NCBI GenBank assembly: GCA_031261635.1
Contig: JAISJH010000068.1
Coordinates: 221 to 64,220, forward strand
Reading direction: 5' to 3'
DNA: 64,000 nucleotides
Source: Oscillospiraceae bacterium
GTDB lineage: Bacteria > Bacillota > Clostridia > Oscillospirales > Oscillospiraceae
A model generated the notes under the pieces. The model was not told the DNA's origin and made no database searches. It was given only the letters and a program-made list of their open reading frames with translations. The translations under genes and the position numbers were made by a program. Shown here piece after piece: positions 4,306 through 54,097 of the stretch. Every line of letters starts with the position of its first letter. Position 1 is the stretch's first letter.

Positions 4306-4320
4306 CAGGAGAAAAAACAA

Positions 4321-34831: not shown

Positions 34832-37800
34832 TTACGCTGCAAAAGTTACTGTAGCTCCAGAGTCAACCCAAGCAGATTCCGCGTAACCCGAGCTAGCCGG
34901 CGTTCTGATATAAATGCTTACTATTTGTGCCGTGAACGCGAACGCTTGCGCCGGCAGTATTGATACGGTATTCTCTCCTGATGCTAGCGTAGCAGGGGCA
35001 AGGTAACTCAAGTACGGGCAAGTAGTCAATGAGTAGGTAGAGTCAAAGGCAATGTACTCAAGCTCCGCAGACGTTGCGTCAAACGACGCTGTTCCTACTG
35101 TTGGTCCGCTAATACTTCCGGATGTCCCAGATGTGATTTTGGTAAGTGCTAATGGAACAGTCGCCTTAACAGGGTAATCTTCAGACGGGATTGTCAATAA
35201 CCAATAGTAGAAGCCCGCTACTGGTGTCCAATCATAGAATCCACCTTCATCTACTTTATAGTCAGTTACAAACTGTGCGTCAGCGTAGGTATACACAGCG
35301 GTTGCACCCACGATATCCGTGGCCTTGACTAATTCCAGCATTTCAGCTGCGGTTTTTGTCGGCGTTGACGATGTTCCCTTAAAATCGGGGTGTGTCGGGT
35401 CGCCGTAAGCGTAAACTTGTGCGCTTCCTGCTAGCGTTGAGCTTGCATAAATCGCGGGGTAGAACTCAGTATTGTCATTCCTGTAAAGCAATTCTACATA
35501 CGTTGTAGTAGCTGAATAACCTGCTGCGTCAAGGATAAAGCGGTTTGGCTTGATATTTGTATTCGCGGGGGCACTGCTTTTTACTATTGTATTTTTGTTG
35601 ATATAATTTAGCGTGTCTCCCACAACATAAGCGTAGTCTCCCGCTGCCGGTGCTGCCGCTACGACTCCGCTGGCAAGATACGCATATGGGGCAGTTGCAG
35701 CAGCATAATCAGCTGCTGTTTTTCCGGATACAAACTGAATTTTAGCTACTCCATCCGGATTGGCAGTAGTCGGGTTTATAACATATGTTACAGAACCGTC
35801 TGTTTCAGGTAAAGTGGTAACAAGGGTAATTAAACCCGCCCAATCGGGACTACGCTGGATTCCGTCCCAAGTTACAGCACCGGCAAATTCTTCTTTGTGG
35901 ATAATAAATTCTTTTACAGTTGCTTTTGTGCCAAAAAGGTCGATAGTACTAAGTGCAAGGATATTAAGCTGGTTAACCGCAAGCGGATAGATTACTTTGT
36001 CCCAGCCTGTGCCGACGTTTTTAAGGGGCTGTTTTTCAGTTGCCGGAGGTGCCGACGGATAAACAACTTGGACAAATGTTGTCGTATCAGAAGCGAAAAT
36101 CGGGTCGTGTATAGCGTTCGGGGTCAACGTAAGATTACCTATGTCAGAGCGTGCCGTAGGAACCGTTCCCGCATAGGGTTGAGAGGTGTTTGTCGACACC
36201 GCTGCAGCGATAGAGGACGTATTACCACCAATGGCAAACAGAGCTGTAGTTCCGCCGGTAGTGATGTACTCATAGAACGTACCTGCCACGGCCGGTTTCG
36301 TTACATTCCTTTTGCCGTTACCATTTATGGCTTCGGTTGTCAATTGGGTAATATTACCTTTTGTGCCGTCATCGTAGATAACGTCAACTGTTGCTCCGGT
36401 TGTCGGGGTTTTATATAGGTTGCTGCCGCTTGTACCTGTAACAACATATAGATACTTAGCAGTCGTGGCCGACCACGATTTGTCAATGATAGTCGCGGGA
36501 TTGAATACAACACCGTGCGAACCTTCGATTAACTGAACCTTGCCTTCGAGCGAGGTCATTTCAACTGAACCTACATCTACCGCGTTTTTATCATACCATA
36601 CAAACGCCGTAGCTGATACACTGTCAACGGTGTATGTTACACGGCGCAAAGTACGAACCTGCGACGTCACTGTAACAGATTTTGGAGCCGCATCATTGAG
36701 GTAGAGATAATTGCCGCTGGACGCCTTTTTCGCGCCAACGCTATACGCTCCGACCGCAGTCGTTACGATAGTGGATTTCGGAACTACGGTAAGGTCAAGA
36801 AGACTTTCTATGGCCGTTGTTCCGCCAAGTGTATTATTAACGAGGTCTTCAAAAATAGAAATTGTTTTATACTTAGTTTCGCCGTTGGAATCCACATAAG
36901 AAACTACATTCACATAAGTTCCAAGGACAAATTTATCTGCGTTTGTAGGCGCAACGCCGGTGAACGCGATTGATTTTGCAGCTTCATTGTCACCATTGAG
37001 GACTACATCGTTGAAATCAAGCGAGAAAGTCGTTGAACCGATGATTTTAGCAGGATATCCGGCATACGGATACGCGGGGTCGTTAAGACCTGCCGTAAAG
37101 CTTCCAAGGTTTTCATAATGCGGTACAAATCCCGCGATGTACTTTCCTGACCCCTCAGCGAAAGCGCTGGCACCTCTGCCCGTCGCGATAAGCGCGGTTC
37201 CGGGGTAGCCAAATGCGTCGTGAGCACTTTCAAATTGGGTATTTGTGAGTTTCGCATAGCTATAGTAATATTTAGGCGCACCACCCGACGCATTATTAGC
37301 TAATTCCAACTCTTTCGTAGCTAAAAGCGCGGTGCGGTTCGTGGTGTACGTGTTAATCTTTTGGCCTGTATACGTGTTTACGTCGCTTGTAACGCGGTTC
37401 GCTGTCATAGCGTTAACAAGGATTTGCGCCGCCTGTTCGTAGGTGATCGCTACGTTCGGTTCTGACACGTTAATGCCGTCGAACAGTCTCGCTTCCGCCG
37501 CATAGCGGATAATGTCAGTCTGAGCATACGTCCAGTCGTTGGAAAGCTCGTAGCCAAGCATTTTTACGAGAAGTCCAGTCCAACCAAGAACGGTGATATC
37601 TTTGTCCGGGCTGAAAGTCGGTCCGATATTGCTCGTGCCTGTCATAAAGCCCATAGCGTATGCCCAACCGTCGCCGTTGCCGAATTTAGTCGAATGGTCA
37701 ACGAACGGCGAAACATAGACGTTGCCGAGTTTTGCCCATTCTGTGGGAGTGTTGTAAGCTTTGGCGAGCAAGGTTGCCGCCGCGCCGCGTGTAAATGTAG

Positions 37801-37998
37801 CTTTAGGGCTGAACTCGCCTTTATCGTTGCCGCTGAAAATGTCTAAAGCGGTGACGACCATAGCGGCGTCATAATAGCCCGGGTCGATTTTATCGACGTC
37901 AGTCCACTTCGCGAGGGTCTCGCCGACGAGCTTTGCGTCAGCCCCGGTGCCGATTGTATAGTCGGCCTGTTTGTCGACTGCCGCGGCACTAGTTCCCC
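34832..37998 (-). CDS. silent S-layer (SLH-domain) protein cassette 1: no promoter, SD, start codon or signal peptide
   Basis: The frame is open from the 42-bp core (GTSAAAVDKQADYTIGTG...) to the stop at 34832, with an in-frame TAA at 38014-38012 just upstream of the core. The N-terminal about 230 aa aligns with the four paralogs (TFTRGAAATLLAKAYNTP; GDGWAYAMGFMSGT..FSP; LLVKMLGY; DIIRYAAEARLF..ITYEQAAQILVNA), giving three SLH-like repeats. Confidence 0.8.
37957..37998 (-). repeat. 42-bp recombination core site, copy 1 (silent)
   Basis: GGGGAACTAGTGCCGCGGCAGTCGACAAACAGGCCGACTATA (read on the minus strand), identical in all five copies. Confidence 0.85.
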
Positions 37999-38126
37999 AG
38001 GAATGTACCGTTTACAATATATGTCAGCAAAACTGGCCGCAAAGCTAGACGTTTAGGCGCGCAACGCTCGATTTGGGGCGTTTTGAAAACTCTCGAAACG
38101 CTTCAAAACAGACTCGTTTTGCCCTC
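37999..38126 (-). repeat. conserved non-coding leader of a silent cassette (copy 1)
   Basis: ...GTTTTGAAGCGTTTCGAGAGTTTTCAAAACGCCCCAAATCGAGCGTTGCGCGCCTAAACGTCTAGCTTTGCGGCCAGTTTTGCTGACATATATTGTAAACGGTACATTCCT. It is alignable with the leaders at 41468-41594, 46773-46877 and 50129-50255. Confidence 0.8.
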
Positions 38127-38189: not shown

Positions 38190-38378
38190 CTACAGCGAGG
38201 CCTTGACCCTTATGCTCTCATTGGCGATTTTAGGCTTGCGGCGGCGCGCCTCGCGGGCTAATCGCGCGTCGATTTTCGCCTTTTCCGCCTGGTACCACGG
38301 CTCGAGCGCTTCCCAATCCTTTCGAAAATTCGGGTTTTTCATATTTTCCTCGTGCCATTTTTCATAATTCAGCATCAT
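38190..38378 (-). CDS. HigA-like antitoxin remnant lacking the HTH domain
   Basis: N-terminus NPNFRKDWEALEPWYQAEKAKIDAR resembles the leader segment of XRE-type antitoxins that pair with Gp49/HigB toxins. Where the HTH should begin, the ORF continues as LAREARRRKPKIANESIRVKASL and stops. Start overlaps the toxin stop (ATGA). Confidence 0.5.
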   Translation of the reverse strand: MMLNYEKWHEENMKNPNFRKDWEALEPWYQAEKAKIDARLAREARRRKPKIANESIRVKASL

Positions 38379-38725
38379 TTTTTTGCTTTCCTTTCGAAGT
38401 AGATTTTTCTATAATTTTTTGCTTTTTCAATCTCTTTTTTGGGAGTTTTTTGTGTTTTTTTAATAAATCCGTTAGTAAAAACGATGCGTTTTCCAACATA
38501 AAAAAAGTATAGAACGCGGGTAATATCCGAGCCCTGTTTGGCTCTCAGCTCGAAAATTCCGTCGCCGAGCGGGCTCGAATGGGGCTCGCGAAGCGCGGGG
38601 CCGTTTTCGTGAAGCAGCTTCACCACGCGGTCGACCTTAGCCCACATTTTCCCGTCCAAAGCCCCGATAAACTCGCCGACCGGCGACTTCCCGTCCTCGG
38701 TTTCAAACAACTCAATCTCATACAT
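38375..38725 (-). CDS. Gp49/HigB-like RelE-superfamily toxin (copy 1)
   Basis: MYEIELFETEDGKSPVGEFI...GDGIFELRAKQGSDITRVLYFFYVGKRIVFTNGFIKKTQKTPKKEIEKA matches the phage Gp49-like (DUF891) addiction-module killer pattern. Confidence 0.8.
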   Translation of the reverse strand: MYEIELFETEDGKSPVGEFIGALDGKMWAKVDRVVKLLHENGPALREPHSSPLGDGIFELRAKQGSDITRVLYFFYVGKRIVFTNGFIKKTQKTPKKEIEKAKNYRKIYFERKAKK

Positions 38726-38819: not shown

Positions 38820-41467
38820 TCAGGACATCTGTAACCCTATTGTATAGAACAGTTCGGGGCGCGATTTATCGTAGTCTGTACCCGTGAAGTGATACGTGTA
38901 CGAACCGTCCTGGCTCGAAGCATTATATCCGACATCTGTTAACACAAAGATATTTATTTGGTCAGCAGTCGGCGCGGCACTTACGGCTTCAAAGGTAGCC
39001 AAAGTCGGTACTATAGCCGCGCCAACTTGTGTCTTTCCTTCGTATGCTAATAGGGCACCTACAGACGCTGTCGTTTGCGATGCGGATTTTTCTACTATCT
39101 TTGTAATCGGTAAATAAGTTGTTGCGTCTGAGCCAATTGTCAAAGTATAGAATGTTCCGTCCGAGTCGGTTGAAATATCCGTAACAACGCCGAAGCCGGA
39201 AACGTGCGGCTTATCAGCCCATATGTCATAGTTTGGTTTGTCAGCGTCAGTAGAAGCCAACCCTACTCCGTTGTGTACTAAAAACGCTCTGCTTGCAACG
39301 GGATACAGCGACGGGACATATAGAATGTCAACTGTTCCGTCAGTTGCGTAAGCAATGTTCTGGTATCCGGTCGCGGCTCTTGTCGCAAGGTCATACCCAA
39401 ATTCGGGAGACGCGGACGCTGCCGGGTTCAACGCAACTTGTTTTACCGTCGTGGTTGAGGTAATACCTAAGGCCGTTCCGGGCGCCGTTTCATACTGCGC
39501 GTTTGTCCAGTTAGGAAGTGCGGGCCAAATTCCCGGGGTAGCCGTAGACGAACCTGCTGTCGGTGTGTTATCTTGTGTCGCAAGCTGTTTCGCAGAACCG
39601 AGCGAATTGCCGCCTAGTGCGAACAAGGCATATGTCCCGTCAGTCTGAACAACATATTCGTAGAATACGCCGTGTGTTGCAACTGCGGTTTCAAGTTCTT
39701 TAAGGTTCAAGCTGTTTGTTTTTCCGTTACCGTTGATTACAGAATTCTTTGCTGTAAGTCTGATGTTTTTGACAGAACCATCTTCGAGTATAACATATAG
39801 TGTTCCGTCCTCTGCCTGTTTCGCCGCAAGCGATATTCCTTGTGCGCCGGTGGCGACGCTTTTAATCGGAACATACAGGTAGGTGGCAGAATAGGCAGTC
39901 CACGTGGCGACTTTTGCGCCCTCAATGAAGTGCAGCGCACCGTGTTCGCCAATGATTGTGTTTACCTTTCCGTCAATGAAGTTCGCCTGATTTACTACCG
40001 CCAAGTCGGTCGCACCATAGGCGTCCAACGTTAATCCTGCTTTTATCGCGGTTTTTGCCGCGCCGTCGCTTGTATATGATACAGTACCCGCAGAATTACT
40101 ATAGCTCTTGACTGTAATTGAAACAGGTGTAACGGCTTTTGCCGCTAAATATTTTCCTGTCCAAGCATATGAATCCGTCGGAGCGGCAGTAGCCTGAACG
40201 CCAAGAACAAAGGTTTTTGCCGTACTCGGAAGGGTAGCAATTATACCGTCAGTAGTGTTTTTCACTTCATCGGCTGCCAAAAGTTTTACAGTAGCGGCAT
40301 AGGGTCCGGCAGACGGACCGTCATTCAGAATGATTGATTCAAAAATGCCGATTGTCTTGTAAAGTTCGCGCGAATCTTCGGTATATTTTACTAGTTCAAG
40401 GAAAGTTCCGTTCGGGACAGCAACGTTCGTCGCCCCCATAAAGTACAGATAAGTACTTGTAACAGTGGGTTCGGTCGAGCCATTCAGTATTAGTTCTTGT
40501 CCTGCGTTGTTCGACGCGTATGTCGAGTTATAAATTGTATCATCACCCGCCCACGCAAGGCCCGGGGCGGTCAATCCCGCAGTAAAGGAATCGACGACAG
40601 CGTAGTGAGGGACAAAACCCGTGATGTACTTTGTGCTTGTGCTAGAAATTCCACCGCTCCATTTTACTAACGCGGTTCCGGGATAGCCGAACGCGTCACG
40701 CGCGGCCGCGTTTATTCCGTCAGAATATAATGTCTCAAAACCGTAATAATATACCGGTTGCGGTCCGTTGTAACCTGATGTCGTGTCCTGTGTCTTTTGC
40801 AAAAGCGCGGTACGGTTTTGCATATATACATCGTACTGCTGTCCGGTGTATTGGTTGCGGTCGTTCGTTACTCGTTTCGCTTTAAGGGCGTTAACGGTAA
40901 TCTGCGCCGCTTGCTCAAACGTAACTTTTGCGGTCGGGTCAGTCACAGTGATACCTGAAAACAATTTCGATTCCGAAGCGAAGCGGATAATGTCGATTTT
41001 GTAGTTTTCAGTCAAGGTGTATCCGAGCATTTTAACGAGCATACCGGTGTACTCGAGAACGGTAATGTCGCGCGCCGGGGAAAATTCTGTCCCGGCTTTG
41101 TTGGTTCCGCTCATAAAGCCTAGAGCATACGCCCAGCCCGCTCCGTTAGCAGCGTAGCTTCCGTCAGTATCGGTGAACGGTGAAACATAGATAGGGCCAA
41201 GTTCAGCCCAAACTTTAGGCGTGTTGTAGGACTTGGCGAGCAAAGTAGCCGCCGCGCCGCGTGTGAAAGTTTTCTTAGCGTTGAAAGCTCCGTCAGTACC
41301 CTCAAAGATACCGAGAGCCGTCACGACCATAGCGGCGTCGTAGTAACCCGCGTCGATGTCGGCCGCGTCAGTCCACTTGGCGAGGGTCTCGCCGACGAGC
41401 TTCGCGTCAGCCCCGGTGCCTATTGTATAGTCGGCCTGTTTGTCGACTGCCGCGGCACTAGTTCCCC
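38820..41467 (-). CDS. silent S-layer (SLH-domain) protein cassette 2: no promoter, SD, start codon or signal peptide
   Basis: The frame is open from the 42-bp core to the stop at 38820. The N-terminal SLH-like region is conserved (TFTRGAAATLLAKSYNTP; AGWAYALGFMSGT..FSP; MLVKMLGY; DIIRFASESKLF..VTFEQAAQITVNAL). The C-terminal two-thirds are divergent. Confidence 0.8.
41426..41467 (-). repeat. 42-bp recombination core site, copy 2 (silent)
   Basis: Identical 42-mer, in frame with cassette 2. Confidence 0.85.
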
Positions 41468-41594
41468 AGGAATGTACCGTTTACAATATATGTCAGCGAA
41501 ATCGACCGCAAAGCTAGATTATTAGGCTCGCAACCCTCGATTTGGGGCGTTTCAAGTTGTCTCGAAACGCTTTAAAACAGCCTTGTTTTGCCCT
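41468..41594 (-). repeat. conserved non-coding leader of a silent cassette (copy 2)
   Basis: Alignable with 37999-38126. It ends ...GCTGACATATATTGTAAACGGTACATTCCT next to the core. Confidence 0.8.
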
Positions 41595-41659: not shown

Positions 41660-41845
41660 CTACAGCGAGGCCTTGACCCTTATGCTCTCGGCGGAGATTT
41701 TGGGCTTGCGGCGGCTCGCCTCGCGGGCTAATCGCGCGTCGATTTGGGCTTGTATTTGCTTGCCCCAGTCCTCGAGGGCGTCGTATTCTTTGCGAAATTC
41801 CGGGTCTTTTAATTGTTCCGCTAAATAATCTGAAAATTTTCTCAT
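41660..41845 (-). CDS. HigA-like antitoxin remnant lacking the HTH domain (copy 2)
   Basis: MRKFSDYLAEQLKDPEFRKEYDALEDWGKQIQAQIDAR, then the same tail LAREASRRKPKISAESIRVKASL as copy 1. Confidence 0.5.
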   Translation of the reverse strand: MRKFSDYLAEQLKDPEFRKEYDALEDWGKQIQAQIDARLAREASRRKPKISAESIRVKASL

Positions 41846-42195
41846 AATAAATTCCTCCTGTTTTCCCGGTATTCATCTCTGTATTTTTTTGCTTTTTCAA
41901 TTTCATTGGGCGGTATTTCCTGTGTTTTTTTGATAAAACCGTGCGTCAAAACCACAGTTTTTCCCTCGATAAAAAAGTACAGAACACGTGTAATATTCGA
42001 GCCGGACTGCGCTCGCAACTCCAAAATGCCGTCCCTCAAATACGCCGAATGCGGACGCCCGAGTTTTGGCCCGTTGTCGGCCAATTTTTCAATAACTTTA
42101 ACCATTTTTGTTCTCATTTTTTTGTCCAAAGAATTAAGAAATTCTTCGGCCGGCTTGTCGCCGTTGCCCTTTTCAAACAAAATAATCTCATACAT
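41842..42195 (-). CDS. Gp49/HigB-like RelE-superfamily toxin (copy 2)
   Basis: MYEIILFEKGNGDKPAEEFL...RDGILELRAQSGSNITRVLYFFIEGKTVVLTHGFIKKTQEIPPNEIEKA. Confidence 0.8.
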   Translation of the reverse strand: MYEIILFEKGNGDKPAEEFLNSLDKKMRTKMVKVIEKLADNGPKLGRPHSAYLRDGILELRAQSGSNITRVLYFFIEGKTVVLTHGFIKKTQEIPPNEIEKAKKYRDEYRENRRNLL

Positions 42196-42291: not shown

Positions 42292-45200
42292 CTAAGGTGC
42301 CACGTATTCGTCGAGGTCTAGCCCCGCCCAGGTAAGGATCAGGAAGTTAGCTCCAACGATGTCATAGGATTCTGCTGTATTGGTTCCCATCATAAGGTCT
42401 AAGCTTCCGGCAGGTACCGGTCCGTACGCGATTGTGAAAGTCACGTCGCTAAGCAGGATTCCGCCGCCAATCGCTGTTCCGTCCGCTCCTGCGTAGTCCG
42501 TTCCATACCAGTCGTGCCACGGGTTATTTTCCGCCCACCACGCAAGGAAGTCAGTTTCGTCCAACGTTCCTTCCGGCTGATAAGCTTTATCTCCGTCGTA
42601 GCTTCCTTTTGGTGTCGAGCTGTATACACCACCCGTGAGGTCTGTCGACGAGAACATCGTCTGGTCTGCCGCCGCAAGTGCTTTACTTACATAGATTGCG
42701 GGGTAGAAGCCGTTTCCGGCGTTGTCAAGGACTTCGAGATAAACGGTTGTGTTCGAGTAGTCTTTACCGTCAAGAATTAGATATTCGTCTCCGATATTGC
42801 TGTCTGCCAAGGCAACCGGACTTGTTTTATACGTTGCGTTGTTGATGTAGTACAAGTCATATCCGGCAGTTTCCGAGCCGATTAGGTAACCGTAGTCGCC
42901 TTTTACCGGAACATTGGAGTTCGCCGCAATAATTGCTGAGGGTACCGCGTCATCACCTGTAACCGCAACAGTCTTGTTAATCGCCTTGTTAATCTTAATT
43001 CCTACGCCGTCCGAAGTATTTACGAGGTAGTGCGCGTTAGCACCTTTTCCCGCTGCCATAGCGTTTTCAATTTTGATTACGCGGTCAGGAGATACCACGC
43101 CGCTCGCCCAGTCTGCACCGCCTGAAGTTTCGAAATGTACAATAAATTCTTTAACGGCTGTGTTAGGCGTTACCGCGTTAAGTGCGAGTACGGCAAGCCA
43201 GCTTATGTTATCCGGGTAGATGATTTTGTTGTAGCCAACCCCGGTATTTTTTACAGGTGCTTTCCAGGAGGCGGTCGCTACTGTATCGTAAGGATAGATG
43301 ACCTGGGTAAAGGTTGTGGCCGCGTTGGTATAAACTGTTTGAGCCGTATACGCGCCCGGCATATCCGCTAGGAGATACCCGCCCCAGTTCGGCTTTGCGC
43401 CGGGGTCAGCAAGCGCCAGGTTTGCACGAGAGTCGTGTACGGTAACATACGGCGCCGCAGAGAAAACAGCAACCGCCGCCGCGCCGCCGGCCGGAGCCGC
43501 TACGTCAAACAGGTTTACTGTGCTGCCCGTTACAACAGTGTACTCATAGAATGTCGTTGCTTTAACATCGTCCGGGTCTAGATAGTTCTTTGCACCCGCG
43601 CCGTTGAGGGCTTCTTTGTCGCTAAGTGTGATTACTCCGATTGAACCGTCGTCGTAGATAACGTCGAACTGGTCGTCTTTAAGCGTGTCGCTTCTGTCAG
43701 ACGCGAACAGGTTACTCTCTACCCCGGCAAGTGCAGGGATAAACAGATACTTCGCGCCGAGAGCCGTCCACGTTGTGTCTACGCTGGTACCCGCGTTGTA
43801 CAGAACGCCGTGCGAGCCGATTACGAGTTTGAAGCGTCCTTCGACCGCCGTTGATTCTGTCCCGAGAGCGGAACCCTGGAAGTTGTTGTCAAGTCCGGTA
43901 GCGGTTACGCCGTCAACTACATATGTTATACGTCCGAGTGTCCGTATATTGCTCGTTACCGTGACAACCTGTTCTTTCGCTCCCTCTGCGTAGAAGTAAA
44001 CGAAATCTTTAGATGTCGCGCCGGAGTTTGCTTCGTCCTTAATGTACAGAGCGAAGGAACCGACATCGACTGTAGCTTTAGCGTTTTTGGCCGCAAGCAG
44101 CGGGCTGAGTTTGTATTCGGTAGCCGCCGTAAGAGCCGCGGCGCTTGCCGTCTCTTTGAAAGCGACGTCCTTGTAGTTCAGTTCGCCGGACGCGTCGGTG
44201 TAGCTAACCACATCAACGTAGGTGCCAAGTAAGAATCCGCCTGAAAGACGTTCCGGGTGGTCTACCGCTCCGACTTTCACGGAGTTCTTAATTGCGCTAA
44301 GCGTAGTTACCGCGCCGTTAAGTACGATACCGCCGCCGGTCGTTTTGACAGCCGCCGCGTGACCGGAGGAACCGGCTGTGCTAAGCGTTGTAAGCCCCGC
44401 TGTAAAGTCGCCTACACTTGTAAAGTGCGGTACAAAACCCGCGATATAGCCCGCGCTGTAGGTATTGTTAGCCGCTTTAAGAATTAGAGCTGTTCCGGGA
44501 TAACCGTATGCGTCGTGAGCCTCAGCCGCTGTCGCTGTACGTGTCAGCGTAGCCAAAGTATAGTTGTACTTTCTCGCGTCTATTATAGTAGAGGTAGGCG
44601 CAATCGTACCGTCGTAAAGCAACGGTGTACGGTTAACCGAATACGTGTCATAATTCTGACCTGTATACGAGTTACGGTCACTTGCTACGCGGTCTGCCTG
44701 TAGCGCGTTAACCATAATCAGTGAGGCCTGTTCGTAGGTAATCTTTGCGTTCGGGTCAGAGATAGTGATACCTCTGAATAGGTTCGCTTCACTCGCAAAG
44801 CGAATGATGTCGGTCTTATAATTCTCGGTAAGCGTATAGCCGAGCATTTTAACCAACATACCGGTAAACTCGATAACGGAAATCTCGCGTTTGGGGCTGA
44901 AATAAATCTGCCCGCCGGCACTTCCGGTACCGCTCATATACCCGAGTGCATACGCCCAGCCGTCGCCGTTGCCGTAATCACTAACGTGGTCAACAAACGG
45001 TGAGACATAAATGTCGCCGAGCTGTTCCCAGGTAGCGGGCGTGTTATACGCTTTAGCGAGCAACGTAGCCGCCGCGCCGCGTGTAAAGGTGGTTTTTGGG
45101 GTAAGCTCCTTATTGGTATTACCCGTGCGGATACCAAGAGCCGCTAAAACCATTGTAGCGTCGTAATAGCCCGCGTCAAGCTCCGCGATATCGGTAAACT

Positions 45201-45345
45201 GAGCAAGCTGCTCGCCGACAGCCTTCCCGTCCACCGTATAGTCGGCCTGTTTGTCGACTGCCGCGGCACTAGTTCCCCCAAAGGCGAACATTCCGACTAT
45301 CATCGTGAGCGCGAGGACTAACGATAATATGCGTTTTGTGGTCAT
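42292..45345 (-). CDS. expressed S-layer protein (three N-terminal SLH-like repeats plus a large variable domain)
   Basis: This is the only paralog with an ATG (45345), an SD (GGAGGA) and a promoter. Signal peptide MTTKRILSLVLALTMIVGMFAFGGTSAAA; 1017 aa, rich in T/A/G/V/Y as is typical of S-layer proteins. SLH-like motifs: TFTRGAAATLLAKAYNTP; GDGWAYALGYMSGT..FSP; MLVKMLGY; DIIRFASEANLF..ITYEQASLIMVNAL. Confidence 0.85.
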   Translation of the reverse strand: MTTKRILSLVLALTMIVGMFAFGGTSAAAVDKQADYTVDGKAVGEQLAQFTDIAELDAGYYDATMVLAALGIRTGNTNKELTPKTTFTRGAAATLLAKAYNTPATWEQLGDIYVSPFVDHVSDYGNGDGWAYALGYMSGTGSAGGQIYFSPKREISVIEFTGMLVKMLGYTLTENYKTDIIRFASEANLFRGITISDPNAKITYEQASLIMVNALQADRVASDRNSYTGQNYDTYSVNRTPLLYDGTIAPTSTIIDARKYNYTLATLTRTATAAEAHDAYGYPGTALILKAANNTYSAGYIAGFVPHFTSVGDFTAGLTTLSTAGSSGHAAAVKTTGGGIVLNGAVTTLSAIKNSVKVGAVDHPERLSGGFLLGTYVDVVSYTDASGELNYKDVAFKETASAAALTAATEYKLSPLLAAKNAKATVDVGSFALYIKDEANSGATSKDFVYFYAEGAKEQVVTVTSNIRTLGRITYVVDGVTATGLDNNFQGSALGTESTAVEGRFKLVIGSHGVLYNAGTSVDTTWTALGAKYLFIPALAGVESNLFASDRSDTLKDDQFDVIYDDGSIGVITLSDKEALNGAGAKNYLDPDDVKATTFYEYTVVTGSTVNLFDVAAPAGGAAAVAVFSAAPYVTVHDSRANLALADPGAKPNWGGYLLADMPGAYTAQTVYTNAATTFTQVIYPYDTVATASWKAPVKNTGVGYNKIIYPDNISWLAVLALNAVTPNTAVKEFIVHFETSGGADWASGVVSPDRVIKIENAMAAGKGANAHYLVNTSDGVGIKINKAINKTVAVTGDDAVPSAIIAANSNVPVKGDYGYLIGSETAGYDLYYINNATYKTSPVALADSNIGDEYLILDGKDYSNTTVYLEVLDNAGNGFYPAIYVSKALAAADQTMFSSTDLTGGVYSSTPKGSYDGDKAYQPEGTLDETDFLAWWAENNPWHDWYGTDYAGADGTAIGGGILLSDVTFTIAYGPVPAGSLDLMMGTNTAESYDIVGANFLILTWAGLDLDEYVAP
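45237..45278 (-). repeat. 42-bp recombination core site, copy 3 (expression site)
   Basis: The identical 42-mer encodes G-T-S-A-A-A-V-D-K-Q-A-D-Y, the end of the signal peptide and the first mature residues. Upstream of it the sequence is unique (signal-peptide exon), not the silent leader. Confidence 0.85.
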
Positions 45346-45352
45346 TTTGTTT

Positions 45353-45460
45353 TCCTCCTAATGTTAGGTGAATTTTTTGTACGCTTGCATTTTACCACAC
45401 TATTCCCGAATATGTCAAGAGGCAAAAGCATATTGTAACAGAACTGTAACATTAGGAGGA
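45353..45460. repeat. perfect 14-bp inverted repeat bracketing the S-layer promoter
   Basis: TCCTCCTAATGTTA at 45353-45366 and TAACATTAGGAGGA at 45447-45460. The proximal arm contains the SD of the expressed gene. Confidence 0.8.
45389..45418 (-). promoter_or_regulatory. strong sigma-A promoter of the S-layer expression site
   Basis: On the minus strand: TTGACA (45418-45413), 18-nt spacer, extended -10 TGgTAAAAT (-10 hexamer 45394-45389). Confidence 0.75.
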
Positions 45461-45479
45461 TATTTAGAAAAATTATCCG

Positions 45480-46643
45480 CTACGCCACAAAAACCTCCTT
45501 CATATATTCATAATACAGCATAGCCGCCTCGCGCTTCTGCTCCGGCAAGACGTCAATGTAGATTGAGTGGACGTCGCCGCCGCCGCGGTGTCCCATAAGC
45601 TCGCGGCAGACGCTCTCCTTGACCCCGGCGGCCTCCATATAGGTGCCGTAGCTATGGCGGAACAGGTGAAAATGAACAGCGCGGGGGTTAATTCCCCGCG
45701 CTGTCCAAAACCTGCTGATTGCGTTGCGTAAGCCGCTGTAGCTGTAAATCTCGCCGAATTTATTCGGGAACACGAGTTTTTGGCCGCCGCTGTCGGCTTT
45801 TCGTTTCCGCAGCATTTTCAGCAGGGATTTGTGAACGTAGATGTCGCGGGCCGAACCCTCGGTTTTGGGGCCTCCGACGCGCCCCTTGTATTCGTCGGAG
45901 CTTTGCGCGGGGTCGGGAACGCGCTTGTAGGCTTTGACGACGCGAATGTAACCCAGCTCGAAGTTAATATTGCCGTATTCAAGCGCGATAACCTCCCCGA
46001 TACGCATACCGGTATGCAAAAGCGTGAGAATTATAGGCGCGTAGGTGCTGTTATCGCGAACCTCGCGAAGCGCGGTCTTAAGCGTCTCAAAGGGAATAGC
46101 CGCGGCGCGGTCGCGCTCGATTTGGGATTTTTTACCATTCAAAAAGTTTTTTAGAAAGCGCATAGGACTGCGCCGGATAATGTTTTCCTCGAGAGCTATG
46201 TCGAAAATGCGGTTTAATAGAAATTTTATTTTTAATAATATTGAAATACTTGGAGTTTGTCCGTTTTTTAATTGCACATTTTTGAAAAATTCTTTAATAT
46301 CGTCGGGGTTTATGTCCTCGATAAATACGCCTTCAAAACCGGGAAATCTGTAAATATAAAGTAAATAATATTCGTAACCCGCGAGGGTCGTGGCCTCCTG
46401 TTCGTCCTTGATAATTGATTCGTAGGCGTATTTCGCGTAGTCTGTAAGAGGGTGCTTCCCGGCGGCCGTATCGCCCGCCGCAAAGCGTTCTAGCTCCCTC
46501 GCATGAATGTATTTTCCGCAAACGACGGTGAGTTCCTTGTGTTCGGTAAGCTCGGAAATAATAGAGGTTTTAAGTCCCAAAATTTTCCCGGATTCCCGAA
46601 ACGTGTACAAAAGTTTTTCCTGCGGCATTCTTTCCTGTGGCAT
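45480..46643 (-). CDS. tyrosine-type site-specific recombinase (phage integrase family), candidate S-layer cassette invertase
   Basis: Catalytic signature LLHTGMRIGEVIAL (Arg), HLFRHSYGTYM (His-x-x-Arg), and LMGHRGGGDVHSIYIDV (His...Tyr). ATG at 46643 follows AAGGAG. The track ORF start at 46712 lies in the promoter. Confidence 0.85.
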   Translation of the reverse strand: MPQERMPQEKLLYTFRESGKILGLKTSIISELTEHKELTVVCGKYIHARELERFAAGDTAAGKHPLTDYAKYAYESIIKDEQEATTLAGYEYYLLYIYRFPGFEGVFIEDINPDDIKEFFKNVQLKNGQTPSISILLKIKFLLNRIFDIALEENIIRRSPMRFLKNFLNGKKSQIERDRAAAIPFETLKTALREVRDNSTYAPIILTLLHTGMRIGEVIALEYGNINFELGYIRVVKAYKRVPDPAQSSDEYKGRVGGPKTEGSARDIYVHKSLLKMLRKRKADSGGQKLVFPNKFGEIYSYSGLRNAISRFWTARGINPRAVHFHLFRHSYGTYMEAAGVKESVCRELMGHRGGGDVHSIYIDVLPEQKREAAMLYYEYMKEVFVA

Positions 46644-46682
46644 AGTGTAGAAATCTCCTTTAATAATAAAAATGTAAGAGCT

Positions 46683-46712
46683 ATTATAACGGAAAATGTA
46701 GGCAATTGTCAA
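46683..46712 (-). promoter_or_regulatory. sigma-A promoter of the recombinase gene
   Basis: TTGACA (46712-46707), 18-nt spacer, TATAAT (46688-46683). It shares the 14-nt TTTGCCTCTTGACA with the S-layer promoter. Confidence 0.7.
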
Positions 46713-46772
46713 GAGGCAAATGTAGAAAAAAGTCGAAAGGTAGGCGGGAGCGAGGCGAAAAGGCGGCGAAAC

Positions 46773-46877
46773 GAAGCGTTTCGAGAGTTTTCAAAACGCC
46801 CCAAATCGACGGTTGCGAGCCTAAACGTCTAGCTTTGCGGCCAATTTCGCTGACATATATTGTAAACGGTACATTCG
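46773..46877 (+). repeat. conserved non-coding leader of a silent cassette (copy 4, no terminator)
   Basis: GAAGCGTTTCGAGAGTTTTCAAAACGCCCCAAATCGACGGTTGCGAGCCTAAACGTCTAGCTTTGCGGCCAATTTCGCTGACATATATTGTAAACGGTACATTC. It is 1 nt shorter before the core than the other leaders. Confidence 0.8.
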
Positions 46878-46919
46878 GGGGAACTAGTGCCGCGGCAGTC
46901 GACAAACAGGCCGACTATA
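46878..46919 (+). repeat. 42-bp recombination core site, copy 4 (silent, inverted relative to the expression site)
   Basis: GGGGAACTAGTGCCGCGGCAGTCGACAAACAGGCCGACTATA on the plus strand. Confidence 0.85.
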
Positions 46920-49798
46920 CAATAGGCACCGGGGCTGACGCAAAGCTCGTCGGCGAGACCCTCGCGCAATTTGCCGACATCGCGGACCTCGACGCGGGGT
47001 ATTACGACGCTACGATGGTTCTCGCGGCTCTTGGTATCCGCGCGGGTAATCCTAACAAGGAACTCACCCCTAAAACCACCTTTACGCGCGGCGCGGCGGC
47101 TACACTTTTAGCCAAAGCGTACAATACGCCCGCCACTTGGGAACAGCTCGGCGAAATTTATGTCTCACCGTTTGTTGACCACGTTGGTGATTATGGAAAC
47201 GGCGACGCTTGGGCATATGCTCTCGGCTTTATGAGCGGCACCGGAAGCGCGGGCGGGCAGCTCTATTTCAGCCCCAAACGCGATATTTCCGTTATCGAGT
47301 TCACAGGTATGCTGGTTAAAATGCTCGGTTACACGCTTACCGAGAGCTACAAGACCGACATAATCCGCTTTGCGAGTGAAGCGAATCTGTTCAATGGTAT
47401 CACGATATCCGACCCCAGCGCGAAAATCACCTATGAACAGGCTTCGCTGATTATGGTTAACGCGCTGAAAGCGCCCCGCGTAGCGAGTAACCGCAACGAG
47501 TATACGGGTCAGAAGTATGACACGTATTCGCCTAACCGCTTACCGTTACTTAGCGAAAAAAAGACCGGTGATAACTTGACTTATGGCGCGCTTACAGACA
47601 TCAAGTATAATTATTCCTTTGGTGGGAACGACGCGTTCGGCTATCCCGGAACTTCGCTGGTTGCAATTACAAAATCCAGTATTGCGAACAAAGACCAAAT
47701 CCTTGGTTTCGTCCCGCATTACACATTTGAAACTTCGTACACCCAAGGCTTGAACCGCCCGGTCGCGGGTCCGACTACGCTCCCCGGAACTGCGGCACTT
47801 GAGGCCGTTCAGCCAATAGAAGTGTTTGAGAACGGTGAGGCAGCGGAGTACGGTCTTGATTTCGCAAACGCGTCAACTTATGTTCCTGCGAATGGAACGT
47901 ATGCGGAAGTCGTTTCGTATACCGCAAATGACGGCACGACTAAATTCCGCACCGTATCCGTTTTGGAAACTCTGGTTGCTCAGGGCGCATATGACGCTGA
48001 AAAAGTATTTTCCGGTGCGACGTCAGTGGGCGGGCAAAAACTCTTAACATTTGCAGCTTACACACCCGGTTATGCTCTTGTTGCCTATACCGCGACGGCT
48101 ACAGCGGGTCCGGTTTTATCGGCACGCGCTGTCACCGCAGAAAAGAAAAACATCACTACAATAATCGGCTCAAAATTTACCGCAAAAGATGTTGATGGTA
48201 CAACTACTTCCACATACGTAAGTGCGAAGTTGGCTGACAAAACGGTTCCTATTGCTGCCGATGGCTTTACACCGTTTGTATCAGTTAGTGGTTTGAAAGA
48301 TACCACCGGTATATTTGAAGTGGTACTCGGTGAACACGGCGAGTTATTCTACGCGAATGACCCGGCTACAACGTGGTCGTGGGCAACGGCAAAATATCTG
48401 TTTGTTCCTGACCAGAGCAGTGCAATTGCCACCGCGGTTGCTACAAACGTAGCAAGTACGCAAACGGTACTCATTTTGGAGGACGGAACGGTTGTCAAAG
48501 GTGTTATTGCGGCGGCTAAAACAGCAACGAGCCAACATAATACACTAAACGTTGTTCCGGGTGTTTCAGCAAACCTGTTTAATACATTCTACGAGTATGA
48601 AATAGTAAACGGAGAATATGCTCTTTATGCGCTGACGGGGGCGATAGACACAACATACGCATATACTGTTACTGGGGCGACTGCGGGCGCCGTGTCCCCG
48701 GGGCTAAACCCCTCGCTTGGACTGGCGCAAAGCGGAACTGTCGCAGGTGTCCCTCTTACCGCCTTGACTAGCATTAAACAAATAGGCGTCAAAACCGGAA
48801 CGCCTCCGTCTGCTGGTGTCACAAATGTCAAAACACAAACGCTGACAGGCTATCATAAAGTAAAAACATCAGCCACAGGCGGGTCGTACATTTTAGAAGT
48901 ATATACGCCGCTAGCACCCGGACAATATTCAACACGAGCTGTTTGGATTTCTGCCGACGCTATAGGACACGGCGATATTACAACCCCGGCGTTCAAAGCT
49001 ACAGGATATGCGCTTGGGTTGCCATATGGGAACTTTGCTTGGTATGCGGAGCCCATTTACACAGTGGGCGATACCACGTATGACATCTACATTTACAACA
49101 CCACCACATACGCATACGCGAAACTTTTCAATACATCAGATACTACTTTTGCCGGAAAAGTGAGTGGCCAAGATAACGGCATACTCGCATATAACGAAAC
49201 AGAAGTGCAAATTCTGGACGCTACTTATTTCGTAGCAAAAATCGGAACAATAACGGCAGATAACGTTAGCATATTTACTGACATAGGCGGACCTGTGACC
49301 TATGCGCGTACTACGGTTGATTCTCCCAAAATCGACCAAACTGGCGCACAGTTGTTCTTATCTGCTACTCCGTCGACTTTGACTACAATTAACGCAACCG
49401 CTTCTGACGCAATCGCAACTATCCAAGCTACCGCTACAGCCACTGCGGCGGTCATAGGCGGCTACGCGAAGGCCGCGGCATGTCCGGCGTTAGCAAGCGC
49501 TACAGCGTTCAAAACAAATACAAGTAATGTTTGGACTGCTGCGTCATTGAACAATCTTGCCGACCATCTAATCCTATGGGAACCCCTGTGGACGGCGATT
49601 GAATCTAAGTTAAATTCTGACGCGACAAACGAAGCAAAAACCGCTGAACAAACCTATGCTGACGCAATAAAATTCTTGAACGCCGCTAGCGCGGAAGTCG
49701 CATTGAATACCAAGAACAGTACGGATATCAACGTAGCGCGTACTAAACTAGACGCATTTTTAACTGGTAAAATAGCTTGGCTTGACGGTATATCCTAA
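46878..49798 (+). CDS. silent S-layer (SLH-domain) protein cassette 4: no promoter, SD or signal peptide
   Basis: GTSAAAVDKQADYTIGTGADAKLVGETLAQF..., then the conserved SLH-like region and a divergent C-terminal part. The track ORF extends upstream to a TTG at 46706 through the leader and the recombinase promoter (basic junk sequence MSRGKCRKKSKGRRERG, no signal peptide). Confidence 0.8.
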
Positions 49799-49820: not shown

Positions 49821-49869
49821 AACCGCCCCCACGGGGGCGGTTGACTTTTTTGTAGAGGTGTGGTATACT
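49821..49869 (+). promoter_or_regulatory. cassette-end module: GC hairpin overlapping the -35 of a sigma-A promoter (drives the small ORF)
   Basis: AACCGCCCCCACGGGGGCGGTT 49821-49842, TTGACT 49841-49846, 17-nt spacer, TGgTATACT (TATACT 49864-49869). Confidence 0.7.
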
Positions 49870-49900
49870 AAAAGCACCAACAACATAGGAGGGCTACATT

Positions 49901-50074
49901 ATGGCTAAAAACGCGGCGGAAATTTCAGCGAGGGCTTTGCGAGCAAACACGCTTCGCGAGATAAGAGATACATTGCTCATCATAAAGCCCGGCGAATTAG
50001 AAAAATTGCCGGAGGAAATCGACAAACTCGCCGAAGCACTCAAAAAAGAAGCCGACGAGCTTACGAAAATCTAG
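49901..50074 (+). CDS. small hypothetical helical protein (57 aa)
   Basis: ATG at 49901 follows TAGGAGGG. MAKNAAEISARALRANTLREIRDTLLIIKPGELEKLPEEIDKLAEALKKEADELTKI. It sits between a promoter and a terminator in the position the toxin pairs occupy on the other arm. It falls below the ORF-track length cutoff. Confidence 0.45.
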   Translation: MAKNAAEISARALRANTLREIRDTLLIIKPGELEKLPEEIDKLAEALKKEADELTKI

Positions 50075-50082
50075 CGTGAAAT

Positions 50083-50128
50083 AGCCCTCCAAACGGTCGA
50101 AAAAAACGGCCGTTTGGAGGGCTTTTTT
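50083..50128 (+). terminator. intrinsic terminator upstream of silent cassette 5
   Basis: AGCCCTCCAAACGG-loop-CCGTTTGGAGGGCT followed by TTTTT. Confidence 0.8.
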
Positions 50129-50255
50129 AGGGCAAAACGAGGCTGTTTTGAAGCGTTTCGAGAGTTTTTGAAAAGCCTCAAATCGACGGCTGCGAGCCTA
50201 AACGTCTAGCTTTGCGGCCAATTTTACTGACATATATTGTAAACGGCACATTCCT
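50129..50255 (+). repeat. conserved non-coding leader of a silent cassette (copy 5)
   Basis: ...GTTTTGAAGCGTTTCGAGAGTTTTTGAAAAGCCTCAAATCGACGGCTGCGAGCCTAAACGTCTAGCTTTGCGGCCAATTTTACTGACATATATTGTAAACGGCACATTCCT, with an in-frame TAA before the core. Confidence 0.8.
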
Positions 50256-50297
50256 GGGGAACTAGTGCCGCGGCAGTCGACAAACAGGCCGACTATA
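50256..50297 (+). repeat. 42-bp recombination core site, copy 5 (silent, inverted relative to the expression site)
   Basis: Identical 42-mer on the plus strand, in frame with cassette 5. Confidence 0.85.
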
Positions 50298-53200
50298 CCG
50301 TAACCGGCGCGGCCAACTCCGGGCTTATCGGCGAGACGCTCGCTAAGTGGAAAGACGCTGACAAAATCAGCGCGGAGTATCTTGACGCCGCTATGGTTGT
50401 CACCGCTCTTGGTATCTTCAGCGGTACTGATACTGACAATGACGGTATCGGCGATACTTTCAACGCCGCGACAACATTCTCGCGCGGCTCCGCGGCTACT
50501 TTGCTTGCGAAAGCCTATACTACGCCCGCAACCTGGGAAAAGACACAGGGCGCGTATGTTTCGACCTTCACCGATACCGGCACGCAGGGTCAGTACCCCG
50601 CAACCGGCGCGGGCTGGGCGTATGCATACGGCTTTATGAGCGGCACGAACGCCGGCGGGACGCAGTTTAGCCCCGACCGTAAAATCACACAGCTTGAGTA
50701 TGCGGGAATGCTCGTGAAAATGCTCGGCTACCACCTCACCGATAATTACAAAACCGACATCGCGCGTTTCGCTAACGAAGTCGGACTGTTCTCGGGGATT
50801 GACAACATCAACCTCACAGAGCTGATTACCTACGAACAGGCGGCAAAAATCACCGTCAACGCGCTGCTCGCGCAACCGGTTTACAACGACCGCGACAAGT
50901 ACACAACATCTGTCGACGTGTACGAACCGCGCCCGAACTATGCTCCCTTACTTTCGAGTAACCCGACTTTAGGAATACAGGGTATCAAATACCGCGCCAC
51001 CTACTCACAAATCGACGACGTGGCAGATCCGTATCCGCTTAACGCGCGTGACGCCTTCGGTTATCCCGGAACCGCGCTTACATATACTAACGGATACATC
51101 GCCGGCTTTGTACCGCACTATACCGTAATCGGAAAAGGTACTAAGGGGCTGACCGCAAGTTATATCTATTCCGCAGGTCCTACGGGTTATTTCCGCCCGG
51201 ATGGTACGGCTTATGACTTCCAAGACCAATATTTCAATAATGGAACTAGTGGCACTTATCCGTGGAACACAACGACATATGCTGACGAGGCCGTACGCGG
51301 AACCTATGGCGAACTTGTAACGTACACAGATTATCAAGGTAAAACAAAATATCGCTTGGTTGAGGTGTATGAAACTACCGACAATATTACAAACGGAACA
51401 ACTACAACCCAATTGACTTATGATATATCAGTAGAACCAAAAGCTTCAAAAACGACTTTCCCGGCTAACAGCCTTGTCAGTCGTGTAACGAAAGGTGCTT
51501 CTGTCATTTCAGCTAAAGTTGTTACGCCTGTGGTCGCGTCCGTGCTTTCGTACACAACTGCGGACGGATATCAAAACACAGCGACCCTATCAATTGACGG
51601 TAAAACTGTGTCAGCAGTTGCGATTAGTACGATAAACATATCGGACGTACATTTCGTAAGTGACAAAATTACTGTTTATGTAGGTGACCACGGTGACATA
51701 CAATGGCAGAAAAACGTGAAGGATTCCACGTGGTCAGCTGCTACTGCCGATTATCTCTACGTCCCGGAGACTGCAATTGCTGCGGGAGGTTACTTGGGCG
51801 TAGCTCATACCGTAGATAATTCGTTTGATGTAGTTTTAGATAGCGGTAAGGTAGTAACTCAAATCAAAATCGCTAAAGCGGGAACGACAGTAAATGGAAA
51901 CGGTATAACCAACGTTGCAAACAACATTTACGACAAATTCTTTGAATACGTAATTCAATCGGATGGAAGTTATGCACTCTTTGTGCCGTATTTAAGCACA
52001 GCGTATGCCCCTAACTTGGCAATTGCCTCGGCAACTGCAAAATCTTATACTGTTGTTGACCCGGCATTCACGAATGCTAACCCGACGGCAAAAGTTGGCG
52101 CGGTTAACGTAAGTCAAGTAAAAAATAATAGTGGATTTGCCTTAAATAACGCAATATTAGGCTCAAACACGACAACAGAAATCAAATCAGTTTATATAAA
52201 CACAGACACGACGAGTGGCGCTTATAATCCTGCTAACCTAAGTGGACCAATAGGAACTTATACGACTGTAGGATACCAAAACTTAGTATTCCCCGTAGTA
52301 GTTGGCGCGTCAATACGTGTTCTTACGGCTATTGATAACCCATATGAGATGGCGGCGGCCGGAACAGCAAAAAAATTGTTCTCCGTTCATTTGGGAACGA
52401 CGGCATTGACAGCCACAGGATCAAACGTAGTTGGTTGGACATCTTCGCTTCTTCCTGCGAAATACGCGACTACAGTAGCGAAAGTAACAAACGCAAATGG
52501 AGTATACAGCATTTATTCAAATGCGTTTGGAAGTTCTATTGACTATCCGGCATATGATGTTCTCGTTGGTACTACAACAGCGAGCACCGTAGGTGGAGAA
52601 ACACCGGCTGTTGGACAGTACGCCGTGTTTAATGAAACGGATTACTGGCTTGCAACTAAGGAAATGTTTGACGTGTCTGTTATATCGGCAACAATAAACG
52701 CTACAACAGACCAAGCACTCTCACTCGGTTCACCTGCTTCGGGTTACTACAGAGCAAAAGATACTAACGCCATTTTGCCAGACAACTTCTATGTAACTGT
52801 CGCTGGATTTGAAAAGCTTAGTGGTAACGCTATATATACTAACGGCAACGGACTGAAAAATTATATTGACAATTTGGGTAAAACCGCAGATGCTGCTGTT
52901 AGTGCTGCGTTCGAACAGGCCTTTTATGTTACCTTTATGCCGGAAGGCCCCGCAAAGGTAGCAGCTTCTGCTGCTGCGTCCAATGCCATAGCGAGCGCGA
53001 GCGCCGGACAGGTTTCTGCAAGAGCAGCAGCAATTACTGAAGCAAAAAGACTTGTTCCGACAGTTGCCGCGAAACCCGCTCTGTATGCGGAGATTGTCGA
53101 CACTACTGCAGGAAAAACAGACGCGACCCAAAAAACCGCTATTGAAGCATTAGTCAAAGATGTGTTTGGGGTTACTACTATCAACGGTGCCTTAGACGAT

Positions 53201-53401
53201 TGGCTTGTCGATTGGGTGTACCCGACTTGGTCTGGTAGTGCGGTTTACACCACGGCACCATTTGACACTGAAGCTAATTTCCAGGCATACGTTGTCACAC
53301 AATTAGAAGCTGCGTTGAACGCGTATGTCGGTACCGGAGGTGTCGCTGGTAAAGCTTCCGCAACAGATATCGCCACATTTATCAAGACGCTTATAGCGTA
53401 A
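50256..53401 (+). CDS. silent S-layer (SLH-domain) protein cassette 5: no promoter, SD, start codon or signal peptide
   Basis: GTSAAAVDKQADYTVTGAANSGLIGETLAKW..., then the SLH-like region (TFSRGSAATLLAKAYTTP; AGWAYAYGFMSGT..FSP; MLVKMLGY; DIARFANEVGLF..ITYEQAAKITVNAL) and a divergent C-terminal part. Confidence 0.8.
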
Positions 53402-54068: not shown

Positions 54069-54097
54069 AGTATAACATTTTTCGCCATTTTTGTCAA
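54069..54097 (-). promoter_or_regulatory. sigma-A promoter of the methylase-like gene
   Basis: TTGACA (54097-54092), 17-nt spacer, TATACT (54074-54069). Confidence 0.65.

Follow-up and report, generated by a model that had tools for sequence, protein, structure and literature searches.

The Hin system of Salmonella is a two-state switch that turns a promoter on or off, and it is driven by a serine invertase that works with an enhancer and Fis. Other inversions act on genes for surface-layer (S-layer) proteins. In Campylobacter fetus, a single S-layer promoter in the sap locus reportedly lies on an invertible segment, and nested inversions reach further cassettes. In Lactobacillus acidophilus, inversion of a chromosomal segment is said to interchange the active S-layer gene and the silent one, slpA and slpB. 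The vsa locus of Mycoplasma pulmonis is organized around one expression site, where the HvsR recombinase joins silent 3' genes to a 5' coding region that has its own promoter and ribosome-binding site (RBS) (PMC2268961). Furthermore, Milman et al. (2023, PMC9881135) report that proteins with SLH domains are enriched among the targets of the gene-altering programmed inversions that they predicted, for which a single-copy upstream part is typical. Here, we analyze a 64,000-nt stretch of DNA (the window) that is part of a 64.9-kb contig from a metagenome-assembled genome (MAG) of an uncultured member of the Oscillospiraceae; a single assembly of the strain exists. Between 34.8 and 53.4 kb, the window contains five paralogous genes for SLH proteins and, among them, a gene for a tyrosine recombinase. 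We propose, with a probability of roughly 75%, that this region is a five-cassette expression-site switch for an SLH-anchored protein of the S-layer type.

The five paralogous genes, referred to here as cassettes, lie on both strands, with cassettes 1–3 on the minus strand and cassettes 4 and 5 on the plus strand:

34832–37999, minus strand: cassette 1, silent; open frame of 1,055 codons between core and stop; SLH; without start codon, signal peptide, or promoter
38820–41468, minus strand: cassette 2, silent; open frame of 882 codons starting at the core; SLH
42292–45345, minus strand: cassette 3, the expressed one in this arrangement; pre-protein of 1,017 residues that has an SLH anchor and a signal peptide of the Sec type (NCBI MDR0936465.1)
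46877–49798, plus strand: cassette 4, silent; open frame of 973 codons starting at the core; SLH
50255–53401, plus strand: cassette 5, silent; 1,048 codons; SLH; leader at 50150–50255

An ATG, a signal-peptide exon, and a promoter are present in cassette 3 only, and the other four cassettes have leaders instead. The first ~210 residues of the five cassettes are 55–87% identical; over the N-terminal 230 residues, cassette 4 is 87% identical to cassette 3. The four promoterless cassettes keep uninterrupted open reading frames (ORFs) of 882–1,055 codons, which argues for their periodic expression.

The SLH family PF00395 was matched in all five cassettes, with one SLH repeat in each and modest E-values in Pfam. 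Furthermore, a profile of the cassette N-termini matches the SLH domains of Bacillus anthracis Sap (E = 5e-8, in two stretches) and of Paenibacillus alvei SpaA. The variable regions of the cassettes, of ~750 residues, matched no Pfam or NCBIfam family. Together with the single repeat recognized per cassette, these regions leave room for a reading in which the switch works as described and its cargo is some other type of SLH-anchored surface protein, such as an adhesin or a receptor-like protein, and not a lattice-forming S-layer protein. We consider this unlikely, because several features fit a major S-layer protein: the length of ~1,000 residues, the strength of the promoter and RBS, expression from one copy only, and a conserved N-terminal anchor that matches the SLH domains of Sap and SpaA. 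Such a reading would alter the name of the cargo but not the mechanism.

A 43-nt repeat, the core GTATAGTCGGCCTGTTTGTCGACTGCCGCGGCACTAGTTCCCC, occurs in five copies with no mismatches. There is one copy in each SLH cassette, located in frame within the 5' coding region. Three copies point one way and two the opposite way:

37956–37998, as written: core of cassette 1
41425–41467, as written: core of cassette 2
45236–45278, as written (minus strand of the cassette): expression-site core, in cassette 3; left arm of the smallest invertible segment
46878–46920, reverse complement (plus strand of the cassette): core of cassette 4; right arm of the smallest invertible segment
50256–50298, reverse complement: core of cassette 5

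The core was not matched in any of 100 shuffled sequences. It is the sole long block that is invariant across the five cassettes, the runner-up being a run of 8 nt within ~880 aligned columns. Divergence begins directly on either side of it, and just 3' of it the identity between pairs of cassettes is 56–80%. The translation of the core, GTSAAAVDKQADY, reads by inspection as the c-region of a signal peptide, with an AAA|V signal-peptidase motif, plus the first mature residues. Within the core are three successive 6-bp palindromes, ACTAGT, CCGCGG, and GTCGAC.

Opposed cores bound six intervals, of which 45279–46877 is the shortest at 1,599 nt; the others span 4,977, 5,410, 8,788, 8,879, and 12,257 nt. 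The initial annotation of this DNA had predicted 45279–46877, between two opposed cores, to be the smallest invertible segment, which is correct, as are all of the coordinates it gave. The sole refinement concerns the exact inverted repeat between cassettes 3 and 4, which is 44 nt long owing to an extra G in both. The same annotation listed the recombinase gene, both promoters, the signal exon, and one silent leader as the contents of this interval, and each of these can be located in it:

45345→45279, minus strand: signal-peptide exon, made up of the ATG, the n-region, and the h-region (MTTKRILSLVLALTMIVGMFAF G); sole copy in the locus
45354–45359, minus strand: S-layer RBS, AGGAGG
45418→45389, minus strand: S-layer promoter, TTGACA-18-TAAAAT, TG extension upstream; matches the consensus at 11 of 12 positions
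46643 (ATG)→45480 (stop), minus strand: tyrosine recombinase gene; 387 residues, MDR0936466.1
46712→46683, minus strand: recombinase promoter, TTGACA-18-TATAAT; matches the consensus at 12 of 12 positions; conserved in a related contig, L001
46721–46877, plus strand: silent leader of cassette 4; sole leader within the invertible segment

The signal exon provides 22 codons outside the core, MTTKRILSLVLALTMIVGMFAF, and is followed by the core-encoded GGTSAAAVDKQADY. Two of the three top-scoring sigma-70-like sites between 34.3 and 54.2 kb are the promoters of this module; the third, at 54097→54069, likewise scores 11 of 12.

The recombinase is proposed to pair two opposed cores and to invert the DNA between them. 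Its action on the cores, and the inversion itself, are what we infer from the arrangement of the sequence. Inversion of 45279–46877 would detach the module from cassette 3 and join it to cassette 4. When performed in silico, it carries the promoter, the RBS, and the 22 codons onto cassette 4, where the signal exon is fused in frame to give an intact pre-protein of 995 residues, and it leaves cassette 3 preceded by the leader, which has no promoter. The initial annotation predicted this exchange of promoter and leader between the two cassettes. The predicted fusion is sound at the level of reading frame, but the flipped arrangement was not found in public collections. Enumeration of all inversions between opposed cores gave 48 arrangements, with cassettes 4 and 5 activated after one step and cassettes 1 and 2 after two; larger inversions would bring the module to cassette 5 in a single step, and cassettes 1 and 2 would need two.

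The recombinase gene and the S-layer promoter are not separated by a core and so always travel as one unit, in keeping with the earlier claim that the recombinase stays with the mobile promoter. In all of these arrangements, the recombinase gene lies upstream of whichever cassette is active and has the same orientation. It also lies within every interval whose inversion moves the module, so its own expression is independent of the state of the switch. No terminator-like site was predicted between the recombinase stop codon and the S-layer start, and recombinase transcripts may thus read through into the active cassette. The purpose of such a switch would presumably be surface variation, allowing escape from recognition by phages or a host. 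In this respect, S-layers are major phage receptors and immune targets.

The recombinase matches the family Phage_integrase (PF00589) with E = 4.5e-18 and 66 bits, against a cutoff of 27.1. Matches to Xer-type models in NCBIfam are weak and all far under their cutoffs, so that the protein is not an equivalog of XerC, XerD, or XerA. Its catalytic set is complete (R214, K260, H326, R329, H352, and Y362), is invariant in an alignment with the proteins P0001–P0004, and aligns with the motifs of XerD and XerA. In an AlphaFold model based on an alignment of five sequences, the catalytic domain is confident, and the N-terminal 180 residues have predicted local distance difference test (pLDDT) values below 50. 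The N-terminal ~60 residues may form an excisionase-type helix-turn-helix, judging from this low-confidence part of the model and from a sub-threshold match to HTH_17 (E = 7e-4) in a paralogue.

Relatives of this enzyme are few. Among 5.8 billion proteins there are only two, 94% and 57% identical, and both come from Joint Genome Institute (JGI) sample 3300042601. The next best match among 1.84 billion cluster representatives is 36% identical, and those that follow are at most 31%. The representative genomes of GTDB gave one match of 25% identity, in an AT-rich Clostridia MAG (L003) without a comparable architecture. These comparisons place the recombinase in an isolated lineage. The closest integrases from phages and plasmids are 26–27% identical, with 33% for the best in IMG/VR; integrases of satellite phages match it over their full length at only 23–27% identity. 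A resident phage or plasmid as the origin of the recombinase was rejected at these best identities (26–27%, and 33% for IMG/VR). The initial annotation had itself named an alternative, in which the recombinase belongs to an unrelated integrated element, and this is not supported by the surroundings of the gene. No tRNA genes or Rfam families were found in the window, and there were no phage-type genes among the genes scanned with Pfam. The locus is flanked by housekeeping genes, with gatCAB on one side and a methylase/HemN/PriA cluster on the other, and none of the phage, plasmid, or IMG/VR integrases exceeds 33% identity.

The 94% identical recombinase is encoded on L001, a contig of a related strain that is collinear with the window from 47551 to 45348 at 77.5% nucleotide identity. 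The order of features on L001 is the N-terminus of a cassette, core, leader, recombinase promoter, recombinase, S-layer promoter, and RBS. Its core differs from that of the window at five wobble positions, and the region of the S-layer promoter is 92% conserved. The body of the L001 cassette has ~41% amino acid identity to the cassettes of the window and is orthologous to none of the five. The module is thus conserved between L001 and the window while the repertoire of cassettes differs. Another contig from the same sample, L004, contains a toxin/antitoxin pair, a leader, a core, and a cassette. Both contigs demonstrate conservation of the architecture and are not evidence of flipping.

The 57% identical paralogue, from the same metagenome sample, is on a third contig (L002). 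Together with its promoter, it is bracketed by 44-nt inverted repeats that are 93% complementary. These repeats, at 1–44 and 1293–1336, contain a terminator-like hairpin, and the contig begins exactly at one of them. From this arrangement, L002 may represent another invertible recombinase module.

Alternatively, any switching at this locus might come about as in the sap locus of C. fetus, with general homologous recombination or gene conversion acting on the long conserved 5' regions that the cassettes share; the recombinase would then be irrelevant or auxiliary. The arms of the module remain alike well past the core, with 84% complementarity over 620 nt between cassettes 3 and 4. Furthermore, mosaic exact runs of up to 42–64 nt near the core in some pairs of cassettes are consistent with gene conversion, and the core is without recognizable dyad symmetry of the recombinase type. 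However, perfect identity that is limited to 43 nt in five copies is the signature of a selected site and not of homogenization driven by homology. Arms of 56–84% identity are poor substrates for RecA, and an intact recombinase gene sits between the innermost inverted cores in an arrangement that is conserved in L001. These points make an explanation by homologous recombination improbable.

Several observations weigh against the locus being an active site-specific switch. The dyad symmetry of the core is not above chance, since the best example, AGTCGAC-AAACAG-GCCGACT, was equalled in 224 of 500 shuffles and is thus no better than shuffled sequence as a guide to the crossover site. With three cores in the same orientation, an unrestricted recombinase would delete cassettes as well as invert them, and the sequence offers no explanation of how such losses would be prevented. 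The cores of L001 (2312–2354) and L004 (435–477) differ from each other at two central positions, GCCGTGGCAG vs GCCGCAGCAG. The first of these changes is non-synonymous, from Ala to Val; among the five cores of the window there are no differences. Either the sample contains two strains or these positions are outside the crossover region. The 64.9-kb contig was assembled straight across all five cores, a mild sign that a single arrangement was dominant in the sample.

Searches of sequence collections point in the same direction. A degenerate pattern of the core had no matches in a collection of metagenome contigs that does not contain even L001 or the contig of the window itself. With the N-terminal profile, no relatives came up among the metagenome contigs, and nothing scored when it was run against the index of 5.8 billion proteins. 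The four predicted chimeras between the signal peptide and other cassettes were absent from 15 billion proteins by exact look-up. By the same type of look-up, neither the S-layer protein nor the recombinase of the window itself is in the contig index. The lineage is nearly unsampled and there is one assembly of the strain, so these negatives for flipped junctions are weak.

The absence of any alternative arrangement from the collections searched, the assembly through all of the repeats, and the membership of the recombinase in a broad phage-integrase family, with full-length satellite-phage matches at 23–27% identity, would also fit a static locus of paralogous SLH genes, four of them 5'-truncated, beside a domesticated or decaying integrase, with identical cores that reflect recent duplication; this is highly improbable, because recent duplication cannot yield 100% identity over 43 nt beside 56–80% identity, the 'truncated' genes keep open frames of roughly 900–1,050 codons, there is no att-like context, tRNA, or phage gene, and the recombinase has intact catalytic residues and a consensus promoter in a module whose order is conserved in L001 at 77.5% nucleotide identity. 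A five-cassette switch operated by the recombinase is our preferred explanation.

The leaders that precede the silent cassettes form a family of their own. A stretch of ~110 nt in the leader of cassette 4 (46773–46881) is 94%, 87%, and 91% identical to the sequences before the cores of cassettes 1, 2, and 5, respectively. The leaders of these three cassettes each come after a strong terminator, for example:

37999–38110, minus strand: silent leader of cassette 1, preceded by a strong terminator hairpin
50083–50123: terminator before the leader of cassette 5, with a 17-bp stem

Beside the core, one nucleotide is deleted from the leader of cassette 4, which has CATTCGGGGG in place of the CATTCCTGGGG found in the other leaders, and as a result a frame is open into the cassette from a TTG at 46706. 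In L004, an in-frame ATG is located five codons ahead of the core. Owing to the open leader of cassette 4 and the in-frame ATG of L004, gene callers annotate 'silent' cassettes as complete genes that are without signal peptides.

Two short repeated elements are associated with the promoters of the module:

45413–45426 and 46707–46720, minus strand: 14-mer TTTGCCTCTTGACA; exactly two copies in 64 kb, 0 expected; one at each promoter
45434–45451, minus strand: direct repeat TGTTACA-N4-TGTTACA; just upstream of the S-layer −35; unique in the window

The 14-mer was reported in the initial annotation as a block shared by both promoters, with the suggestion that it marks a duplication or a common regulator site. 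The sharing is real, with the two copies being the only ones in the window, but the suggested role is not borne out, as the block is not conserved in L001. The recombinase promoter there is ACATACCCCCTTGACA and the S-layer promoter is TTTTTCCTCTTGACA. An extended −35 (CCnCTTGACAT) is the only element common to all four promoters of the window and L001. As the 14-mer failed the one available test of conservation, its candidacy as a common regulator site was rejected.

The direct repeat is part of a block of 25 nt that L001 has in identical form (at about 3846–3870) while its flanks diverge. Its reverse complement starts with the 9-mer ATATTGTAA, which ends all four silent leaders at a distance of 12 nt from the core; this 9-mer has eight matches in the window, compared with 0.43 expected. 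From this pattern, TGTTACA-N4-TGTTACA is a better candidate than the 14-mer for a regulatory or accessory site.

The spacers between cassettes 1, 2, and 3 contain genes of the toxin–antitoxin (TA) type:

38190–38725, minus strand: Gp49/HigB-like toxin gene (38375–38725) with a 62-residue partner ORF; spacer between cassettes 1 and 2
41842–42195: the toxin gene in a second copy, again beside a small ORF as its partner, the pair at about 41.66–42.2 kb; spacer between cassettes 2 and 3

Both toxin genes match PF05973, with E about 1e-25, and the same pair of toxin and partner precedes the leader in L004 (1–320). The two pairs in the window sit precisely on the DNA that would be lost through a deletion between direct-repeat cores. 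TA cassettes have been proposed to play a stabilizing role of this sort in superintegrons. The pairs may therefore be an anti-deletion lock that keeps the silent repertoire in place. A wider proposal can be made, in which the 1.6-kb unit is a self-contained 'mobile expression module' that transcriptionally couples a tyrosine invertase of an essentially unsampled lineage to the active cassette, and in which the TA pairs are the anti-deletion locks. In this full form the proposal is speculative, and we think it quite unlikely.

The spacer between cassettes 4 and 5 (49841–50123) has no toxin gene. It contains an ORF of 57 residues (49901–50074) behind the promoter-like sequence TTGACT-17-TATACT, followed by the terminator with the 17-bp stem. 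Homologues of this ORF are tandemly repeated 3' of the cassette in L004, at 3592–3845 and 4122–4375.

Repeats of a different type are found outside the cassettes. Mosaic intergenic repeats are located at 31.8–32.2, 54.1–54.6, 55.96–56.25, 58.8–59.06, 60.5–61.05, and 62.5–62.9 kb. They consist of GC-rich palindromic units (for example, GACGGCGCACGGCGCCGGGAC) flanked by AT-rich tandem units of 42 nt (CTTTCGTCTCTGATATTTGATATTTGCTAACTGTTAACTGAA). These mosaics occur in both orientations between housekeeping genes, and they have short matches in L004 and elsewhere in the window.

If active, this locus would be a clear example of multi-cassette S-layer variation in an uncultured member of the Oscillospiraceae that is brought about by a dedicated site-specific recombinase. 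No paper describing such an architecture in Oscillospiraceae or for SLH proteins was found. A five-way switch of this type would, if it exists, affect phage–host dynamics and the persistence of strains. There would also be consequences for the annotation of such MAGs, as four of the five genes resemble 5'-truncated pseudogenes. Furthermore, the compact module, with its 43-nt site, 387-residue recombinase, and two consensus promoters, is a candidate part for the construction of multi-state genetic switches.

Comparison with described systems shows that the locus opens no new mechanistic category; the design is known, and the host and the protein family are new. The proposed mechanism matches expression-site switching by site-specific inversion, as in the vsa locus of M. 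pulmonis. Both loci have a single expression site and several cassettes; inversion takes place, or here would take place, at a short site within coding sequence, the silent cassettes are without their 5' ends, and a tyrosine recombinase is encoded by the locus. They differ in cargo, as vsa encodes a lipoprotein whereas the cargo here is a wall protein with an SLH anchor, from an organism of the class Clostridia. They also differ in the length of coding sequence that moves, which is 22 codons here compared with 714 nt in vsa, and in the position of the recombinase gene, which is inside the mobile module here but beside the locus in vsa. The likeness to vsa and HvsR is in the sense of 'works like' and not one of membership, since the best match of the recombinase outside its own clade is only 36% identical.

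Likeness of purpose is found among the S-layer systems. As in the sap locus of C. fetus, a single promoter lies on an invertible segment between opposed cassettes that have a conserved 5' region. Recombination in C. fetus is largely RecA-dependent and uses a conserved region of ~600 bp, whereas a dedicated tyrosine recombinase and a 43-nt core are proposed here. The C. fetus segment carries the secretion genes sapCDEF, and the segment here carries the recombinase. In addition, the proteins of C. fetus are type I secreted and have no Sec signal peptide, unlike the product of the Sec-type signal exon described here. The slpA/slpB system of L. acidophilus is also an exchange of S-layer genes by inversion, and in a Gram-positive organism; it involves only two genes, and no recombinase gene has been identified within its segment. 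The locus described here would probably serve the same biological purpose as these two S-layer inversions.

Other features recall systems with different cargo. As in the Hin system, the recombinase gene is inside a segment that has an outward promoter, and its expression is independent of orientation. Unlike Hin, the enzyme here belongs to PF00589 and has a tyrosine nucleophile, and 5' coding sequence would be exchanged among several cassettes. The locus also has much in common with the gene-altering inversions and shufflons of Milman et al. (2023), for which the main text describes inverted repeats inside paralogous coding sequences and a single-copy upstream part (PMC9881135). That main text does not describe the anatomy of an SLH locus or a five-cassette locus with promoter and recombinase on one module, which is the combination that the window presents.

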